DNA from: a virus
Taxonomy: Duplodnaviria > Heunggongvirae > Uroviricota > Caudoviricetes
IMG/VR virus record: IMGVR_UViG_2908567220_000002
Span: 1 to 64,000 of that record
DNA: 64,000 nucleotides
Reading direction: 5' to 3' (one strand)
Below, piece after piece: positions 30,042 through 45,347 of this stretch. A model generated the notes under the pieces. The model ran no database searches. It was not told the origin of the DNA and worked only from the letters and a program-made list of their open reading frames with translations. The position numbers were made by a program, and so were the translations under genes. Each line of letters begins with the position of its first letter. Position 1 is the stretch's first letter.

Positions 30042-30116
<75 letters not shown>

Positions 30117-30119
30117 CAT

Positions 30120-30195
<76 letters not shown>

Positions 30196-30362
30196 CATTG
30201 GTTCCTCAGGTGTGGATGAGATGCCCGGATACATAAATTACCCTCCCTTGGAACCGACGAAGAATAATAATGAATTCCGCTCCTGTTTCAATACAAACAA
30301 TGTCAGGTATTTAAAACATAATTATACAATATTATAAAAATTAAAAAGTTCGCAAAAAAAAG

Positions 30363-31409
30363 CTAACTATTGTTTCTTATTTCATCAAACGTTTGATTAA
30401 ACCTGTCCGTTTCCAGCTCTACACCAATAGCTCTACGTTCCAGAGAGAGCGCAGCCTTTATAGTCGCCCCCGATCCCATAAAAAAGTCTGCAACCAGTTC
30501 CCCCGGACGACTGCTGGCTGTAATTATCTGCCGCAACATATCTGCTGGCTTCTCACACGGATGTTTACCCGGATAATACTGCACAGGTTTGTGCGTCCAG
30601 ACATCCGTATAAGGAACGGCAGCCGATACGGAAAAATAACGCCGCAAAGATTTATACTCTTCCAGCAGGCTGACATATTGCCGGTTCAGTTCGCTGTATG
30701 TGCTGACCAGATGGTGGTGTGGCTTTTCCAGTTCTCCGCGTTGATGTTTTTCTGCTGCAACACGCGCAAACAACGCCTGCAGCTTTCTGTAATCAGCTTC
30801 GTTCGGTAACTGCCACTGGCTGGCACCAAACCAGTGCGAAGCCATGTTTTTCTTTCCGGTGGCTTCCGCTATCTGTTTCGGCGTAATCCCCAGTGATTCA
30901 CGCGCATCACGAAAGTAAGAAATCAGCGGAGCCATGACATGCTGTTTAAGCTCGCGCCCCTTTGCCACATAGCCATCATTTTTTGGCCGATATGGCCCCT
31001 GGTAATGTTCAGCAAACAGTATGTGCTCTGTTGCCGGGAAATATGCCCTCAGGCTTTCCTTCCTGCACCCGTTCCAGCGTCCGGACGGCTTCGCCCAGAT
31101 GATATGGTTAAGCACGTTGAAACGTTCACGCAACATGATCTCGATATCAGATGCCAGACGATGCCCACAGAACAGGTAAAGACTTCCGGCGGGCTTCAGT
31201 ACCCGCCAGAACTGCGCCAGACACTGGTCCAGCCATTTCAGGTAATCATCGTCGCCCTCCCACTGGTTATCCCAGCCCTCGGGCTTCACTTTAAAGTATG
31301 GCGGGTCTGTGACTATCAGATCGACAGAATTTTCCGGTAAGGTCTGGATAAATTCCAGGCAATCAGCGTTGATTAACTCACAACTGGATATTTTTACAGT
31401 ATTGGCCAT
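30363..31409 (-). CDS. DNA N6-adenine methyltransferase (orphan, phage-borne)
   Basis: 348 aa; DPPY motif (VTDPPYFK) and C-terminal AdoMet-binding FMGSGAT motif. Confidence 0.75.
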   Translation of the reverse strand: MANTVKISSCELINADCLEFIQTLPENSVDLIVTDPPYFKVKPEGWDNQWEGDDDYLKWLDQCLAQFWRVLKPAGSLYLFCGHRLASDIEIMLRERFNVLNHIIWAKPSGRWNGCRKESLRAYFPATEHILFAEHYQGPYRPKNDGYVAKGRELKQHVMAPLISYFRDARESLGITPKQIAEATGKKNMASHWFGASQWQLPNEADYRKLQALFARVAAEKHQRGELEKPHHHLVSTYSELNRQYVSLLEEYKSLRRYFSVSAAVPYTDVWTHKPVQYYPGKHPCEKPADMLRQIITASSRPGELVADFFMGSGATIKAALSLERRAIGVELETDRFNQTFDEIRNNS

Positions 31410-32039: not shown

Positions 32040-32573
32040 TCATCTTGTTAACCTGAAATGTTTAGAAAAAGATGACTTAAAACTTGCAACAGGCTCCAAT
32101 ACAGCATGTAAATCTCTTGTAAACCACTTAGTTTCCTGCATGCCCATTTTCAGTAACTTTGAAAGTTGATTGTTACAAGCAATAAAATCTCTCTTGAAAT
32201 CATTTATACCCGATGTTTTTTTTGCACAGAACCCAGCAATTAGTTTTTTTACAGGAATTCCGCAACACCAGGCCAACTCCTCCTCAAAATTTCTTTTCTG
32301 CTGCAAAAGATAAACTTTATGCCCTCTGTTTTTAAGGAACTTTACATTTTCAATGAATCTTGCAGATTGCTCCACTTCATCACTATCAAAGACAATTAGT
32401 ATATCACTTCCCTTCGGAATAGTAATCGCATAATTTCTTATGCTCTCTTGCCAAAAGTTTCTTTTTACAATTGATTTGGCATCAATAACTCTCTGTTGTT
32501 TCATCTTCTGAAAAAGAGAGTTTTCTGTTTCACCTTCGACAAAAATTATTCTTATTTTAGACAACCCCGCCAT
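32040..32573 (-). CDS. Small Toprim-like protein (RloB/AbiLii-like or DUF4276/DUF4435-like), predicted nuclease partner of the upstream ATPase
   Basis: 177 aa; N-terminal IIFVEGETE and downstream IVFDSDE resemble the Toprim Glu and DxD motifs; start overlaps the ATPase stop (TGATG); AT-rich. Confidence 0.6.
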   Translation of the reverse strand: MAGLSKIRIIFVEGETENSLFQKMKQQRVIDAKSIVKRNFWQESIRNYAITIPKGSDILIVFDSDEVEQSARFIENVKFLKNRGHKVYLLQQKRNFEEELAWCCGIPVKKLIAGFCAKKTSGINDFKRDFIACNNQLSKLLKMGMQETKWFTRDLHAVLEPVASFKSSFSKHFRLTR

Positions 32574-33763
32574 CAGAGTAGCTCCGATACTAATGATGTG
32601 TCAGGTAAGACACCAAAGACATCTCTCTCAACAGCGTTTCGCATGCTACGGTCATTTTTTTTAACAACTGAATTTGCTTCAACAAACTCCGAATAGTCTT
32701 TCGTTTTTTTAATAAAAATGAACGAGTGAACAGGCAGATCCAACTCAAAAATATCCATGTTATGTGTTGTATAGAAAAACTGAGTATTTTCTTTCAAATT
32801 AGATATAATCAGCGCCACAATCATACGCTCTAACTCTGAATGTGTATAAGCCAATTTCTCGTCAAGAAAATAAGTCATTGATGGTATTAGAGATTGCTTA
32901 CCTAGTCTTTCACAATCAGAGATAATAGCGCTTATAAAATGCGCTACCGTCACTGCCTCGTATGTTCCTCGAGAAAGACGGTCTGAGTTAATTATTTCAC
33001 CTTTACTGGTAACGACAAGAGAATCAGAGTTTTTAAATTTAATCAGATAAACCGCAGATGATTTATTTTCATCCCCGTCACTTTCAGACTCCAGCATCTC
33101 GGTAACTCCTATAATACTTGAATCGAAAGTGCGAATTATCCTTTCAAGAATATTTTTATTCATTCCTGAAATTGCAGTGGTACTCTCTTTAGTTTCAGAC
33201 AACAAATAGTACCATCCACCAAAAAACTTAAGTTGCTTGAAAAACTCCAATACAACTGGTTCGCTATCAGTAGCTAGTTCCTGAAAAAAATATTCTGTAT
33301 CTCCTGGGGCCCTTCCAGAAAAGAGTTGATTCAGTTTTTCTGTGGTTTTATAGCAAGAATCATTTAATGCTATTTGAACAAAACCATATTTAATTTCTTT
33401 GATTATGTGCGCTCCGCCTTCACTGGTAGCAAAGCGTACATACAAACGATGATGAAAATGTTCCTCCGTAGCAAAGTCCACTTCAAACGAAGCATCATTA
33501 TTTTTATTATTCACTCGCAGATTACTCCGCAACTCTTTGGTTCTTAGAAACACCTGAATTCCACAAAGAATTCGCCCTAGTGACGTCTTACCTGAAGCAT
33601 TCCCCCCCGTTATGATACAGACTTTTTTATAGTAAAATTTAGGCCGTCCAGCCAAAAACTCCCCATCAAGAGGCATGTTTACAGGTTTCCTTGGATAGGA
33701 CAGGTTAAGCTCTGCATCCTCAAAAGCGTACAAATTGATAAATCTCAATCGTGTAAATATCAT
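32573..33763 (-). CDS. ABC-type/AAA ATPase (AAA_15/AAA_21-like; RloA/AbiLi/AriA/OLD-like)
   Basis: ORF 32573-33853; probable start MIFTRLRFINLYAFEDAELNL at 33763 with GGAAG RBS; Walker A GGNASGKTS, Walker B-like TYFLDE, H-loop-like YTTHN. Confidence 0.7.
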   Translation of the reverse strand: MIFTRLRFINLYAFEDAELNLSYPRKPVNMPLDGEFLAGRPKFYYKKVCIITGGNASGKTSLGRILCGIQVFLRTKELRSNLRVNNKNNDASFEVDFATEEHFHHRLYVRFATSEGGAHIIKEIKYGFVQIALNDSCYKTTEKLNQLFSGRAPGDTEYFFQELATDSEPVVLEFFKQLKFFGGWYYLLSETKESTTAISGMNKNILERIIRTFDSSIIGVTEMLESESDGDENKSSAVYLIKFKNSDSLVVTSKGEIINSDRLSRGTYEAVTVAHFISAIISDCERLGKQSLIPSMTYFLDEKLAYTHSELERMIVALIISNLKENTQFFYTTHNMDIFELDLPVHSFIFIKKTKDYSEFVEANSVVKKNDRSMRNAVERDVFGVLPDTSLVSELL

Positions 33764-33852
33764 TCTTATCTTCCATATGTTGGAACTTAACGTAAGTATT
33801 GTCCAGACCTTGATGAACGTCAACAAGATTGATAGCTGATGCACTTCTATCA

Positions 33853-34410
33853 TCAGTTATCAGAAAAGCACCGAAGTGCCACGCACATTGGAAGGAAAAG
33901 CATGGTTTCAGCCATCGCCAACCAAACATCAATGCGATTTCTACAAGTTTTCAGGCTCCAGTCAGGGTGATTCTTTTTTAACTGTTCTGCCATTTTCAGC
34001 TTGCTCATTCCCAGCCCTTCATATCTTTGTCGGAGGATACAAATCAATCCCGGATGCTCTGCCAACACTTCACTAATTACCCGATCGATACATAACGCCT
34101 CGGCATCAGTACAATAAGCCAGCCCGCTCTTTTGCTTGCTGTTGATCATCTCACGCAAAAACGCTTCCAGCTCAGTTTTATCAATCCCTGATTTTTTTAT
34201 TCTGCGCAGAGCTTCATTGATCGCAGTTTTTGTAAGTGTTTTGGATGCCAGCAACTGATTGAACATATTTCCTGGTTTGCCACCACCTATGTACGACCAA
34301 CGCCCCCACATCCGTAATTTCCCCTGGATCCAGACGGCTTCCAGCGTTTTTAGACGTAAATGCTCGCCGCTTTTGCCTGTAATTTCCGGGTATATCATAT
34401 TTACGATCAC
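33853..34410 (-). CDS. Putative late-gene antiterminator Q-like protein (phage 21/82-type); identification tentative
   Basis: 185 aa directly downstream of rusA (canonical Q position); RMWGRW motif resembles the WGxW motif recalled for 21-type Q. Confidence 0.45.
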   Translation of the reverse strand: MIVNMIYPEITGKSGEHLRLKTLEAVWIQGKLRMWGRWSYIGGGKPGNMFNQLLASKTLTKTAINEALRRIKKSGIDKTELEAFLREMINSKQKSGLAYCTDAEALCIDRVISEVLAEHPGLICILRQRYEGLGMSKLKMAEQLKKNHPDWSLKTCRNRIDVWLAMAETMLFLPMCVALRCFSDN

Positions 34411-34416
34411 TCACTC

Positions 34417-34767
34417 TCAATTTTGTAAATCTTCACGCCCAGCCGCCCCCCCAGGAACGCGCTGACCGCGCACAATATTGATTTCATCAAACTGCTCGTC
34501 GTCTATGAGAAGTCCGGCATGCGTCAGCGCATCCAGTGGTGCTTTCAGAATATTGTCCAGGTCACAACGGCGCTTATCCGGTGGCTCTGCAATAATCTTT
34601 ATCGCCAGCCTTCCGGACAGGTTTAATTTCAGTCGCTGCTGGCGAACAATTAGCGCCACATCACGGCGATAACGCTCACCGGCTTTTGAAACAAAATATG
34701 TGCTGCCACGACGTCGCCAGTAGGTATTCACCGTCGGCGGGTAAGGCAAAACAAACTCTATACGCAT
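34417..34767 (-). CDS. rusA: Holliday junction resolvase RusA
   Basis: 116 aa; motifs LPYPPTVNTYW, RRCDLDN and DALTHAGLLIDD match the RusA signature as recalled. Confidence 0.8.
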   Translation of the reverse strand: MRIEFVLPYPPTVNTYWRRRGSTYFVSKAGERYRRDVALIVRQQRLKLNLSGRLAIKIIAEPPDKRRCDLDNILKAPLDALTHAGLLIDDEQFDEINIVRGQRVPGGAAGREDLQN

Positions 34768-34779
34768 CAGTAACCTCTT

Positions 34780-35829
34780 TTACCCGAGCACGCCGGTTGC
34801 AAAGGCGTGATCAAGAAAACGAAAAATTAAATCAACCTGAGAACCATGCTTTTCTTCGAACGCCAGCGGATCCGCATGAAGTTCGTTGTGATGCTCCCGG
34901 CACAGCGGTAGCGTGAAAATATCGTGAGCTTTTGTCCCCATTCCGCCCTGAGCATGACCAATCAGGTGATGGGGATCATCAGCTGGCTTACCACAGCACG
35001 AACACGGCTGTGTCTTTACCCAGCGTGTGTATTTCTCATTGACCCAACGGCGACGTTTAGGTCGTTTCATGAAAGATTCTGGAGACTCCGGATCAACAGT
35101 GATGCTGACCACCGTCTTTTTGTGAGGCGGGTTTTGTTGCTGGTAGGCGTGGCGCAGCGGCACAATATTTTTTGTGCGCTGCTTCAGTATGCTGGTGGCG
35201 CTCTGCTCTCCCGGTACGATGTCACTTTCGCGATACACCGAGTGGATTTTTTCCGCACGTAACCCCAGAGAACGACGTAATACTGCTTCCGGTAGCGCGT
35301 CCGCCACCTGATTGCAGACCGCCCACCAGGATAATTCAGCCAAAGATAATTCACGCTCCTGCGTACCGCTTATTGCGTGACCGATGACGTCAATCATCCA
35401 TGCTGACAGGTTTTGATGAGCAAGTTGCTCGAGTGATTCGGATGTCTGGTCACGCAGCTGGTTGTCGCAGTGCCAGCACAACACCATTGCGCCGGTACCA
35501 TAACGGTGAATGACGGTTTCGCTGTGATGATAATCGCCGTGTGGCCACTGGCAGGATTTAATATGGCGCAACAGCCAGTCAGACAATGCACCAGCACCAC
35601 CAGCAGCACGAATCACCCGTGCGTTACTGAAAAACGGCAGCAATGTTTTGTCTTCCACCAGCGGCTGGCGAGCGGCGGGAACAACCCCGGACGGCAGATT
35701 ACGCATGCTTTTCGGTTCCGGCTCCACCAGTACCCGGGTATTGTGGAATACCGGCATGGATTCACGGCCCGGCTTAACGATCACCAGCCCGAGTTCCGGT
35801 ACCAGAACAGGTCGAAGTAATACCCGCAC
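34780..35829 (-). CDS. ydfU: DUF968-family protein (YdfU-like) with C-terminal HNH-like Cys/His motifs
   Basis: 349 aa; C-terminal CSCCGKPADDPHHL...CREHHNELH; same position as ydfU in Qin as recalled. Confidence 0.65.
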   Translation of the reverse strand: MRVLLRPVLVPELGLVIVKPGRESMPVFHNTRVLVEPEPKSMRNLPSGVVPAARQPLVEDKTLLPFFSNARVIRAAGGAGALSDWLLRHIKSCQWPHGDYHHSETVIHRYGTGAMVLCWHCDNQLRDQTSESLEQLAHQNLSAWMIDVIGHAISGTQERELSLAELSWWAVCNQVADALPEAVLRRSLGLRAEKIHSVYRESDIVPGEQSATSILKQRTKNIVPLRHAYQQQNPPHKKTVVSITVDPESPESFMKRPKRRRWVNEKYTRWVKTQPCSCCGKPADDPHHLIGHAQGGMGTKAHDIFTLPLCREHHNELHADPLAFEEKHGSQVDLIFRFLDHAFATGVLG

Positions 35830-35830
35830 G

Positions 35831-36103
35831 TTACCTCCAGATGCGTTGCTGGAATGTGCGGGACGGACGCGGTGGGCGTTCGGAGTAAGGAAGCCTGACG
35901 GAGATTATCCAGTGACGATAATCGAGGCTGAGGGCTTTCTTAATCTCGTATCCGTGTCTGCGGTAGCACTGAATTAGCCACTCGACCTGTTCTTCAGTAC
36001 ATGGTGGGTGTTGGTACCAGTCGGTTTTAAATGCGTGTGAACGCCGCCCATGCCGGATGGCAAGGTCGGTATCAGAATTGTGAAATTTGGTTTTGTGCGC
36101 CAT
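35831..36103 (-). CDS. Hypothetical phage protein
   Basis: 90-aa ORF between the hok locus and the ydfU-like gene. Confidence 0.4.
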   Translation of the reverse strand: MAHKTKFHNSDTDLAIRHGRRSHAFKTDWYQHPPCTEEQVEWLIQCYRRHGYEIKKALSLDYRHWIISVRLPYSERPPRPSRTFQQRIWR

Positions 36104-36270
36104 CTGTTTTCTCTGCTGGCGCAGCAGGTGTCAGGTGTTCAGGCTGACGTGCGAATTGTAAACCAGAATGCCAGGAAAAAACAAAACCCGCCGAAGCGGG
36201 TTAAGTGCGGGTGCGTTGAGGATGCCTGACTCATCAGAGGTGGCGAGGGATTTCTCCCTCGCCTGGTCTC

Positions 36271-36426
36271 TTACTCCTCAGGTTCGTAAGCTGTGAAGAC
36301 AGCGACCTCCGTCTGGCCGGTTCGGATTCGTACCTCGCAGAGGTCTTTCCTCGTTACCAGTGCCGTCATTATGACGGTTAAACAGATGACGATCAGGGCG
36401 ATTAACATCGCCTTTTGCTGCTTCAT
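36271..36426 (-). CDS. hokD: Hok-family type I toxin (HokD/RelF-like)
   Basis: MKQQKAMLIALIVICLTVIMTALVTRKDLCEVRIRTGQTEVAVFTAYEPEE, near-identical to HokD as recalled; the longer in-frame ORF to 36483 may be the mok-like frame. Confidence 0.8.
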   Translation of the reverse strand: MKQQKAMLIALIVICLTVIMTALVTRKDLCEVRIRTGQTEVAVFTAYEPEE

Positions 36427-36836
36427 AGCCTGCTTCTCCTTGCCTTTCGGCACGTAAGAGGCTAACCTAGATTTGCCGTTCATAGATTGAGCCTCAGATT
36501 AATGTATAAGCGTCTTGCAGGACGCATAATGTTAACTGGGGCTTTTCTCTATCTGCCTTTGGTGTTCATGCTTGAGGCAGATAGCCTCAAGCACCCGCAG
36601 CAATTTTACTTAACTCCCCTTTTCCCACAAATCGTTTTTATCCCTACTGGTAATGTTCTCCCGATGTGGGATTCCCACATTGGAACGAATTCAATCAGTT
36701 AAAGACTCATCAGAATCTCACCTTTCTAAGTGCCCACAGGTGAGGCATTGCAATAAAAATAGCAAACGTGTATAAAAGGAGGTAATGCATGTTTTTCCAG
36801 TCTTATCAATCCATTACTGAGAGTTAAGGGGGCGCC

Positions 36837-37631
36837 GTGGATCGGTGCGGTAATTATTTACTTAAAGATGGTCGCAGTTTAGGACAAGGGAGTTTTGGCG
36901 AAGTATTTAAGGTTGATGTCTATAACTTAACCCAGACCCACATGACCACATATGCTCGCAAATACTTTTCACCTTGCCCGGACTTTGACAAGACCGCTAT
37001 AAAAGAGTTGACTGATTTAAGACAGCGTTTTTTAGTTGAGATCAAAACACAATGCACTCTCAATAGAATAAACTATGATTCAATAGCGCCAATAGTTTTA
37101 TTTAATACAAATGGTGATAAACCTTATTTTGTTATGGAATTGGCAGAGTGTAACTTATATGAAGCCATCCGCAATGGTATGAATTACGCGGAGAGGAAGT
37201 CTGCTGTTACTCAGATTTTAAAAGGAATTATCACCATACATGAAAACAACTATATACATCGTGATTTAAAACCAGGAAACATACTTTATTATGCCGATGG
37301 AAAGTATAAAATATCTGATTTTGGTCTAGTAAAAGACAGAGATACCTTACGGGCCGAAATCAAAACAAAATTTAAGCCTAATCACATGGGCACAGATGGA
37401 TATCGAGCGCCCGAAATACATGATAGCGGTCTTTTTTCTTTTCAAAGCGACATATTTGCAGCAGGTAAAATTATCACTGATATATATCCCACAGAAAGAA
37501 GTGAAAAATTAAAAAGATTGATTGCAAAATGTTGCGCACATTGGCCTGAAGAACGATATCAAAGCACACGGGAGTTACTGGAAGATTTTTTAAAAGTGAC
37601 GGGGGAGGTAAATCATGAAGAACATAATTGA
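36837..37631 (+). CDS. Hanks-type (eukaryotic-like) serine/threonine protein kinase, kinase domain only
   Basis: GTG start with RBS TAAGGGGG; glycine loop GQGSFGEV, lysine YARK, catalytic loop HRDLKPGN, DFG, APE; AT-rich versus flanks. Confidence 0.85.
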   Translation: MDRCGNYLLKDGRSLGQGSFGEVFKVDVYNLTQTHMTTYARKYFSPCPDFDKTAIKELTDLRQRFLVEIKTQCTLNRINYDSIAPIVLFNTNGDKPYFVMELAECNLYEAIRNGMNYAERKSAVTQILKGIITIHENNYIHRDLKPGNILYYADGKYKISDFGLVKDRDTLRAEIKTKFKPNHMGTDGYRAPEIHDSGLFSFQSDIFAAGKIITDIYPTERSEKLKRLIAKCCAHWPEERYQSTRELLEDFLKVTGEVNHEEHN

Positions 37632-38331
37632 AATGGCATGTTTTAGCCTAAAACAACCCCAAAAAAAAGAAAATGAAGACTTTTATTTACCGCCATCTTT
37701 TGATAGCGATTTTAACATTGTCTTTGCAGTAGCTGATGGGGTTGGTTCCTCTGAACATTCAATGCTTGCATCTCATGCAGCCATTCGTGGCATTAGACAC
37801 ACGCTAGGCACTTCCTTTTTCTCAATTGAAAGTGCATTTCATTCAGCTAAAAAAGAAATTGACAATTTAGATATTAGCACTGCCACAACCTTAACAATTG
37901 TTCAGATCAAAAAAAATGAAGTGTTAATTGGTCATTCCGGTGATTGCCGAGTATACTTCAATAAAAACAACAAACTAAATCAGTTAACCACTGATCAAAC
38001 GAGATATCAAGAACTCCTTGATTCTGGTGAACATAAATTACGTAATTTAAGAAATCATAAAGAACGGCTATCTTCAGTCCTAACGAATGCTTTATCAAAT
38101 ACAACGGATTTGAATTTTGAGTTAATGTCTTTTCCGATTAGCCAGCTAATTTATAATGGCTATCTTCAACTCTATGCAATGACTGATGGTGCCTATAAGC
38201 ATTGGGATGTCAGACCAAGGTTTTCTGAGAAGACAATGCTCTCACCAACAGCTTTTGCGAGTAGTTTAAGAAAAAGGATTGAGAAAAACATAATGGATGA
38301 TTACACTTTTATAGGCGTAAAAGTAACCTAA
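37615..38331 (+). CDS. PP2C-family serine/threonine phosphatase
   Basis: ATG with RBS GGGGGAGG; overlaps the kinase gene by 17 nt; motifs FAVADGVGS, GHSGDCR, TDG. Confidence 0.75.
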   Translation: MKNIIEMACFSLKQPQKKENEDFYLPPSFDSDFNIVFAVADGVGSSEHSMLASHAAIRGIRHTLGTSFFSIESAFHSAKKEIDNLDISTATTLTIVQIKKNEVLIGHSGDCRVYFNKNNKLNQLTTDQTRYQELLDSGEHKLRNLRNHKERLSSVLTNALSNTTDLNFELMSFPISQLIYNGYLQLYAMTDGAYKHWDVRPRFSEKTMLSPTAFASSLRKRIEKNIMDDYTFIGVKVT

Positions 38332-44836: not shown

Positions 44837-45155
44837 TCCTTTTTACTGTGGAAAGCTAAATCATATCACGGTCTATGAAGTAAAAAGTGAATTTCGTGAT
44901 GCGGTGAATGCGGCTCAGCGCACGCAGAACAGTTAAAAACACAAGTGTTATGGGTGAATCATCCGGCGTTAATTGCTAACTGGTTAACGTCACCTGGAGG
45001 CACCAGGCACCGCATCACAAAGTTCACTTAGGTGATGAAAGGTAGAGAAAATGTTGAATGTAGCTATTGAAAACCAGAACGGGTGGAATTATAGTGCACC
45101 TGCACCTCATAAAACGGGTGCCGGGCGTGGAAACCCGATGTTCACTAACGCGCAT

Positions 45156-45178
45156 AACCGCGCTCAGGCGGTTTTTTT
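45156..45178 (+). terminator. Rho-independent terminator within the leader upstream of the rha-like gene
   Basis: Stem AACCGC/GCGGTT, loop GCTCAG, followed by T7. Confidence 0.55.
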
Positions 45179-45347
45179 ATGCGTAATGCACAGCCACATT
45201 CAGATTATGGTGGGACGTGCAGGGCAGCCGCAAGGCTGGCCGGGTTCGTTAGTGACCGGTATTTCCACCCCTGTACGTCTCACCACCCTTATGGTCGTGG
45301 AAAACCTTGGTGGTGAGTTAATCAAATTCACTAACGAGGCTGCTATC

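Follow-up and report, generated by a model that had tools for sequence, protein, structure and literature searches.

A probable complete hok/mok/sok toxin-antitoxin module of the HokD/HokW lineage in a Qin-like lambdoid prophage

The subject of this analysis is a Hok-family type I toxin-antitoxin locus within a 64,000-nucleotide (nt) stretch of viral DNA, positions 1 to 64,000 of the Caudoviricetes record IMGVR_UViG_2908567220_000002 in IMG/VR, which we refer to as the window; (+) denotes the strand as presented and (−) its complement. The hok toxin gene occupies 36271..36426 (−), with its codons at 36426..36274 and the stop at 36273..36271, and encodes a HokD-type protein of 51 amino acids (aa). 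A mok-like reading frame of 70 codons, 36271..36483 (−), runs in frame with hok, and its equivalent in the Stx2 phage 933W is annotated as mokW. Its 70-aa product reads MNGKSRLASYVPKGKEKQA followed by MKQQKAMLIALIVICLTVIMTALVTRKDLCEVRIRTGQTEVAVFTAYEPEE, the latter corresponding to the last 51 codons, that is, to Hok proper. A first-pass annotation of the window had assigned the hok locus to 36271-36483, which is exactly the 70-codon open reading frame (ORF); the interval is that of the mok frame, however, with Hok proper confined to 36271..36426, and the complete unit is larger than both.

The window ORF matches Pfam HOK_GEF over the full profile (1-42) with E = 4.4e-23 and 81 bits against a cut-off of 22, and PHROG 251, 'MokW-like host killing', with E = 4e-33. 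Both matches are far beyond chance and, together with the 110-bit match to Rfam RF01794 described below, they bear out the family placement first made from the sequence letters. The NCBIfam Hok-subfamily model gives the window Hok 48 bits, under its strict cut-off of 73, and PADLOC holds no model matching Hok, hence the locus receives no defence-system call from it. The predicted protein has the expected build of a Hok/Gef toxin, about 50 aa long, with a hydrophobic helix near the N terminus and sequence conservation towards the C terminus. Indeed, the near-identity to HokD noted at first pass is confirmed by alignment to the Qin hokD locus of a K-12 derivative, with 50 of 51 residues identical to K-12 HokD and a single nucleotide changed (ATA GTG to ATA ATG), giving V20M. 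Searches with tblastn and Rfam find a single Hok copy in the window.

The mok extension adds 19 in-frame codons at the N terminus, starting from an ATG at 36483, 57 nt 5′ of the hok ATG. The mok Shine-Dalgarno (SD) sequence, GAGG at 36492..36495 (−), lies 8 nt 5′ of the mok ATG and is paired in the full-length fold described below. The hok SD, GGAG, lies at 36436..36439 (−), where GCAAGGAGAAG is common to the R1-type, 933W and K-12 loci.

Upstream of these frames, Rfam RF01794 (sok) matches 36596..36421 (−) over the full model, positions 1-157, scoring 110.4 bits (gathering score 59; E = 3e-24), and the consensus structure of the model fits the window with few non-canonical pairs. The same model scores 113.5 bits in 933W and 87.2 bits in the R1-type IncFII plasmid locus, and gives no match at K-12 Qin hokD. 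An Rfam scan had been proposed at first pass as the check on this locus, and its outcome is well above the threshold. Although the family is entitled 'sok antitoxin', its matches in the window, in 933W and in the R1-type plasmid are all on the hok strand, and the model terminates in the hok AUG. For these reasons we take RF01794 to model the hok leader, with Sok as its complement on the plus strand; a minus-strand Sok, which the Rfam strand would imply at face value, was rejected.

The predicted full-length hok mRNA of about 421 nt runs from 36596 to about 36176 (−), its 5′ end corresponding to position 1 of the Rfam leader model and its 3′ end to an intrinsic terminator at 36175..36202 (−), located by a terminator scan, with a stem at 36202..36185 followed by UUGUUUUUUC. 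The putative hok promoter consists of a −35 box TTGTGG at 36625..36630 (−), a weak match that reads TTGCGG in 933W, a 16-nt spacer, and a −10 box TAAAAT at 36603..36608 (−), which reads TAGAAT at the same place in 933W. G36596 is the seventh base after this −10 box, which agrees with where the Rfam leader model begins (36596). With its promoter and leader the unit extends past the interval first noted, to about 36630, and the remaining ~200 bp up to the start of the neighbouring kinase gene (36837) lie outside it.

The two ends of this RNA are predicted to pair with each other. The minimum free energy (MFE) fold of the 421-nt RNA has −169.7 kcal/mol (z = −8.8, and none of 100 shuffles was as good). 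Nucleotides 1-12, the tac element GGGUGCUUGAGG at 36585..36596 (−), are paired in this fold with 36221..36209, and the mok GAGG is paired with ucb, an anti-SD box AAGCCCC at 36538..36544 (−). The partner of tac in this fold is fbi, CCUCAACGCACCC at 36209..36221 (−), which begins 49 nt past the hok stop and is complementary to tac with one bulged C; the tac-fbi duplex has −21.5 kcal/mol. These models point to a long-range closure of the hok mRNA by tac and fbi.

Removal of the 3′ 50 nt changes the predicted fold. The 5′ end of the hok RNA then folds onto GCCUCAAGCAU, the tac partner at 36568..36578 (−), and the identical hairpin forms in nascent RNAs of 57 and 137 nt. Furthermore, tac can pair with ucb, as it does in the Rfam consensus, and forcing this pairing costs 11.5 kcal/mol in the full-length RNA versus 3.4 kcal/mol in the 3′-truncated one. 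In the truncated RNA so constrained, the mok SD (GAGGCU) enters a hairpin with dcb, AGCCUC at 36458..36463 (−), where AGGWTAGCCTCTTAC is shared with the R1-type locus. The loop of this hairpin carries the mok AUG, and is the exact sequence complementary to the tail of the predicted Sok. The folds are consistent with a ucb/dcb switch combined with a metastable 5′ hairpin, and the refolding step is compatible with the thermodynamics, which alone do not prove the pathway.

The same arrangement is described for plasmid R1, where in the full-length, closed form tac pairs with fbi while ucb masks the SD, in the truncated, open form tac pairs with ucb and the SD joins dcb in the target hairpin, and a metastable 5′ hairpin exists during transcription (PMC9841398). 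As modelled, the window elements would reproduce this closed/open/metastable scheme element for element.

An antisense promoter had been expected at first pass in the roughly 350 bp upstream of the ORF. We place it instead inside the mok frame, at 36440..36468 (+), where homology points to a −35 box TTGCCT (36440..36445), a 17-nt spacer and a −10 box TAACCT (36463..36468). The predicted Sok antisense RNA of about 72-76 nt, ~36475..36550 (+), starts near G36475 and ends at about 36546-36550, some 65 nt past the interval first noted; in the alignment it falls on the sokW that is annotated in 933W. It would comprise the 5′ tail GCCGUUCAU, a long hairpin and GGGGCUUUUCUCU, and its fold (36475 to ~36550) has −27.7 kcal/mol (z = −4.1). 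The tail has nine unpaired nucleotides, and these are complementary to mok codons 1-3, start codon included. The candidate Sok thus appears to have what a cis-antisense RNA of this class has, namely its own promoter in the mok/hok SD region, a free tail, a hairpin, a U-tail and complementarity to the mok start, both the hok and the Sok promoter being assigned by homology.

Relatives from a scan of one genome per species comprise 66 Hok-encoding loci from Escherichia, Shigella, Kluyvera, Citrobacter, Photorhabdus, Erwinia, Pantoea and others. A full-length leader was found by nhmmer in 50 of the 57 segments of testable length, window included, and 48 of these 50, again including the window, retain an intact Hok ORF. 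In nearly all 50, the 13-16 nt at the 5′ end are able to pair with a segment located 40-56 nt past the hok stop. Covariation between tac and fbi was assessed over 43 distinct tac/3′ combinations, and compensatory changes are seen at position 4 (U-A in 30, C-G in 9) and position 12 (G-C in 28, A-U in 13), as well as at positions 10 and 11. The mean duplex energy over these combinations is −20.3 kcal/mol versus −11.9 kcal/mol with shuffled 3′ regions, and for the less common tac variants the pairing is better with the 3′ end of the same locus than with that of a different one. For Sok, most relatives have a −35 box TTGCCT or TTGACC, 17-nt spacing and a −10 box TAnnnT, and the architecture of tail, hairpin and GGGGCUUU is recurrent, with many compensatory changes in the stem. 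In the HokD/HokW clade, which includes the window, the hairpin is longer by about 20 nt (73-76 nt versus 52-57 nt), and this corresponds to a 17-nt insertion in the Rfam alignment. Since the paired RNA elements are kept by compensatory changes across genera, selection appears to act on the regulation.

For mok, an ATG at −57/−58 with an upstream GAGG is present in 41 of the 48 leader-bearing segments whose Hok ORF is intact, 32 having it in frame with hok and 9 in the +1 frame. What is conserved in mok thus appears to be the position of its start and not its peptide, as expected for mok; the overlapping longer frame reported at first pass stands, with 70 codons, its ATG at 36483 and this conserved start.

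Among 13 distinct close relatives, prophage copies that are nearly identical elsewhere, the segment 36469..36488, which spans the Sok 5′ tail and mok codons 1-5, is the variability hotspot of the transcribed locus. Its mean pairwise difference is 0.38-0.43, versus at most 0.17 in the flanking Sok hairpin and promoter. Variation in this segment may set the specificity of Sok for hok between co-resident copies. That the hotspot reflects diversifying selection against cross-neutralization among the hok/sok copies of one genome is a tentative proposal, which we hold possible without favoring it; if it were true, the Sok of a given prophage would give protection from the hok mRNA of that prophage and from no other.

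Of 5426 complete Escherichia coli genomes, 4733 contain sequence that matches the locus, and in 3828 a match spans at least 80% of it, with a median of 2 and a maximum of 11 matching places per genome; 78 phage records contain such sequence as well. A wider count found 44,248 Hok homologues, enriched in prophages (bioRxiv 10.1101/2025.08.07.668861). Three near-identical HokD-type loci of our scan (L013, L021 and L032) come from assemblies of Veillonella parvula (metagenome-assembled), Acinetobacter idrijaensis and Xanthomonas pisi, where they lie on small or binned contigs; most likely they are E. coli or phage contamination or mis-binning and not true hosts.

The K-12 Qin hokD (relF) locus, proposed at first pass as the reference for alignment, confirms the near-identity of Hok but is a poor reference for the remainder, being a truncated form. 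Its homology to the window covers the hok SD, the coding region, fbi and the terminator at 97.7% identity and ends 15 nt 5′ of the hok ATG, where relB-relE occupy the place of the leader; tac, ucb, the mok start and the Sok promoter and body are all lacking in K-12. The downstream neighbours are alike in K-12 Qin and the window (rem-like, DUF968/ydfU and a Q-type antiterminator), whereas the upstream neighbour is a kinase gene in the window and relE in K-12. On this comparison, the window would hold the complete form of the locus whose truncated form is K-12 hokD. HokD itself is toxic on overexpression (summarized in bioRxiv 10.1101/2025.08.07.668861).

The K-12 case also gives substance to a different reading, namely that the window locus is an inactive remnant of the same kind, a hok ORF without leader, mok start or sok. 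The NCBI pipeline does name the gene 'hokD' in near-identical genomes, after a K-12 namesake without the regulatory region. In the window, by contrast, the whole leader and Sok region are present, whereas K-12 homology reaches no further than 15 nt 5′ of the hok ATG, Rfam matches the window and not the K-12 locus, and tac, ucb, mok SD, dcb, fbi and terminator have all been located. The first-pass annotation had taken the absence of a Sok-like element or of an mRNA fold-back structure as the sign of such a remnant, and both are present. We regard this reading as extremely improbable, and at the level of sequence the leader and Sok, the Rfam match and the fold exclude it.

The closest studied relative is hokW/mokW/sokW of the Stx2 phage 933W and the Sakai prophage Sp5. 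Across 88% of its 501 nt, the window locus is 92% identical at the nucleotide level to that of 933W, in whose record all three elements are annotated. The two loci have in common tac, ucb, an in-frame 70-codon mok, TTGCCT-17-TAACCT, the extended Sok hairpin and fbi. They differ in the Hok C terminus (TAYEPEE in the window, VDYESEK in HokW), in the Sok 5′ tail and mok codons 2-5 (MNGKS in the window, MLNTC in 933W), and in the 3′ terminator region beyond fbi, where the window is unrelated to 933W. Their genomic places differ as well, the window locus lying between kinase/phosphatase and Rem/DUF968/RusA/Q genes and that of 933W near the right end of the genome. In Sp5, HokW is toxic and is neutralized by sokW expressed from its own promoter (Takada et al., PMC8621323), partly dependent on RNase III and Hfq, and truncated RNAs were reported (PMC8621323). 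On treatment with mitomycin C, sokW vanishes and HokW appears in a RecA-dependent manner, and deletion of hokW-sokW halves phage release (PMC8621323).

The window and the archetype, hok/sok (parB) of plasmid R1, have the same elements in the same order, and Rfam matches both, although the Hok proteins are only 42% identical. R1 mok lies in a frame different from that of hok, whereas the window mok is in frame; both arrangements occur in the family. The islands conserved with the R1-type locus are tac (GGYGCTTGAGGCTWTCTGCCTCA), the mok SD (GAGGC), dcb/Sok −10 (AGGWTAGCCTCTTAC), Sok −35/hok SD (GCAAGGAGAAG) and the GCTTACGAA site. The Sok hairpin of the window's clade is about 20 nt longer than that of R1, and the window copy is prophage-borne versus plasmid-borne in R1. 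As a separate observation, the Hok Tyr47 codon UAC is followed by G (36285..36288, −), which places a UACG context in a predicted 9-nt loop, CUUACGAAC; the GCTTACGAA site is kept even in the R1-type locus.

The sequence 5′ of hok could also be read on the plus strand, as encoding a 71-aa protein (36487..36702) and not RNA elements. This ORF matches PHROG 7511, a family of unknown function, with E = 3e-29, and several phage records list it under the names 'hypothetical' or 'mobile element protein'. It starts with TTG, however, and has no NCBIfam match; the frame is open for 13-91 codons in the relatives, and for 26-49 in the closest ones; and its conservation is fully explained by the RNA structure that Rfam models. 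A protein-coding role in place of the RNA elements thus has hardly any probability in our estimate. Similarly, a 59-aa plus-strand ORF at 36050..36229, over the hok 3′ untranslated region (UTR), matches PHROG 2947 (unknown function) and has no NCBIfam match. Because the Sok and leader elements and those of the 3′ UTR account for the conservation of both plus-strand ORFs, the two, which some public records carry as hypothetical or 'mobile element' proteins, are probably gene-calling artefacts.

Together, these observations favor a complete type I toxin-antitoxin module, a hok/mok/sok unit of the HokD/HokW lineage that a lambdoid Qin-like prophage carries as a 'moron' or accessory gene, a reading to which we give a probability of roughly 85%. 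The sequence and structure elements are all present, and are conserved or covarying in the relatives, and the module is very probably functional. Its mechanism we infer from the element-by-element correspondence with R1 hok/sok; transcription, processing, differential RNA stability, toxicity and biological role are likewise inferred. A weak promoter would produce the stable ~421-nt hok mRNA (36596 to ~36176, −), with tac held in the local 5′ hairpin during transcription. In the finished transcript, tac would pair with fbi and ucb would mask the mok ribosome site, so that neither translation nor Sok binding could occur. Slow 3′ trimming would then remove fbi, and tac would pair with ucb, releasing the mok ribosome site into the dcb target hairpin. 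This open form could meet one of two fates: either ribosomes would translate mok and, by coupling, hok, or the short and unstable Sok (~36475..36550, +) would bind, its free 5′ tail covering the mok start codon. Were Sok synthesis to stop, through loss of the DNA or induction of the prophage, Sok would decay first, the stored hok mRNA would be translated, and the 51-aa Hok would insert in the inner membrane and kill or lyse the cell. Retaining the prophage, assisting lysis when it is induced (as hokW-sokW is reported to do) and abortive defence are all possible roles.

Several points weigh against a functional module of this kind. The Sok −10 box TAACCT fits the consensus at 3 of 6 positions, and a scan for consensus promoters that demanded at least 4 of 6 matches per hexamer returned none for hok or Sok; since the boxes are conserved with 933W and the R1-type loci, we do not read this result as absence of the promoters. 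The V20M substitution may bear on toxicity, although Met stands at position 20 in several homologues. The unconstrained truncated mRNA prefers the 5′ hairpin over the tac/ucb pairing by 3.4 kcal/mol. Finally, native chromosomal hokA, hokB and hokC gave no post-segregational killing (in bioRxiv 10.1101/2025.08.07.668861).

The last point leads to the possibility that the locus is structurally complete but physiologically silent, hitch-hiking in prophages without killing on loss or shut-off. Silence has been reported for other chromosomal hok/sok loci, and the window promoters are weak compared with the consensus, whereas hokW-sokW, the closest studied relative at 92% identity, is active in its native prophage. 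Furthermore, a silent locus would not readily account for RNA pairings kept by compensatory change across genera, or for a Hok ORF intact in 48 of 50 leader-bearing segments. We consider silence unlikely, and retain the complete and very probably functional module as the better account.

The surroundings of the hok/mok/sok locus agree with what had been described at first pass, a locus with a kinase module on one side and several toxin-like or defence elements within 32-38 kb. Along the minus strand, the order is replication genes, a kinase/phosphatase pair on the opposite strand, the hok locus, a Rem-like ORF, DUF968, RusA, Q, an AbiLi-like gene, a methyltransferase and tRNAs. The Ser/Thr protein kinase gene, 36837..37631 (+), matches Pfam Pkinase (1e-31) and PADLOC mad6 (1e-37), PD-T4-6 and Stk2, and overlaps by 17 nt a PP2C phosphatase gene at 37615..38331 (+). 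This pair is transcribed against the surrounding prophage genes and lies directly upstream of the hok promoter region. At 36748..36827 (+), just 5′ of the GTG start of the kinase, TTGCAA and TATAAA are separated by 17 nt and followed by a strong AAGGAGG; a very short ORF there, from ATG 36785 (11 codons) or ATG 36789 (12 codons), may serve the kinase operon as a leader peptide or small regulatory ORF.

On the other side of hok lie the Rem-like ORF (35831..36103), DUF968 (34780..35829), RusA (34417..34767) and the Q-type antiterminator (33853..34410). Immediately downstream of the Q-type gene, an AbiLi-like AAA ATPase of 426 aa, 32573..33853 (−), matches PADLOC AbiLi at 1e-25, with Pfam AAA_15 below threshold; it is abutted by a 177-aa ORF without a family match (pair at 32040..33853, −), and the two are likely a prophage-borne abortive-infection pair. 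In the late-gene leader region of the prophage, tRNA genes at 30046..30117 and 30124..30196 adjoin a gene resembling type II DNA methyltransferases, 30363..31409 (−; PADLOC MTase_II, 1e-150). Elsewhere in the window, Rfam matches on the plus strand (605..688, 45102..45178 and 45203..45290) comprise two C4 antisense RNAs about 44.6 kb apart, the second preceded by a match to the Hfq-binding RNA isrK; the C4 pair might point to a repeated module or mark where two prophages have their immunity or anti-termination regions. The genome of E. coli strain 23CRST014 has a locus of 99.6% identity with the same neighbours, where the annotation gives 'hokD' and two overlapping hypothetical proteins, and neither mok nor Sok.

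The locus belongs to an already known, textbook system, annotated and tested in 933W/Sp5, and it is found in most E. coli genomes, so that the finding would have little import beyond correct annotation. In that respect, the label 'hokD' masks what is probably a complete mok/hok/sok unit, unlike that of K-12. With the module, this prophage segment would have one more accessory gene of the toxin type beside its kinase/phosphatase pair and its AbiL-like ATPase.

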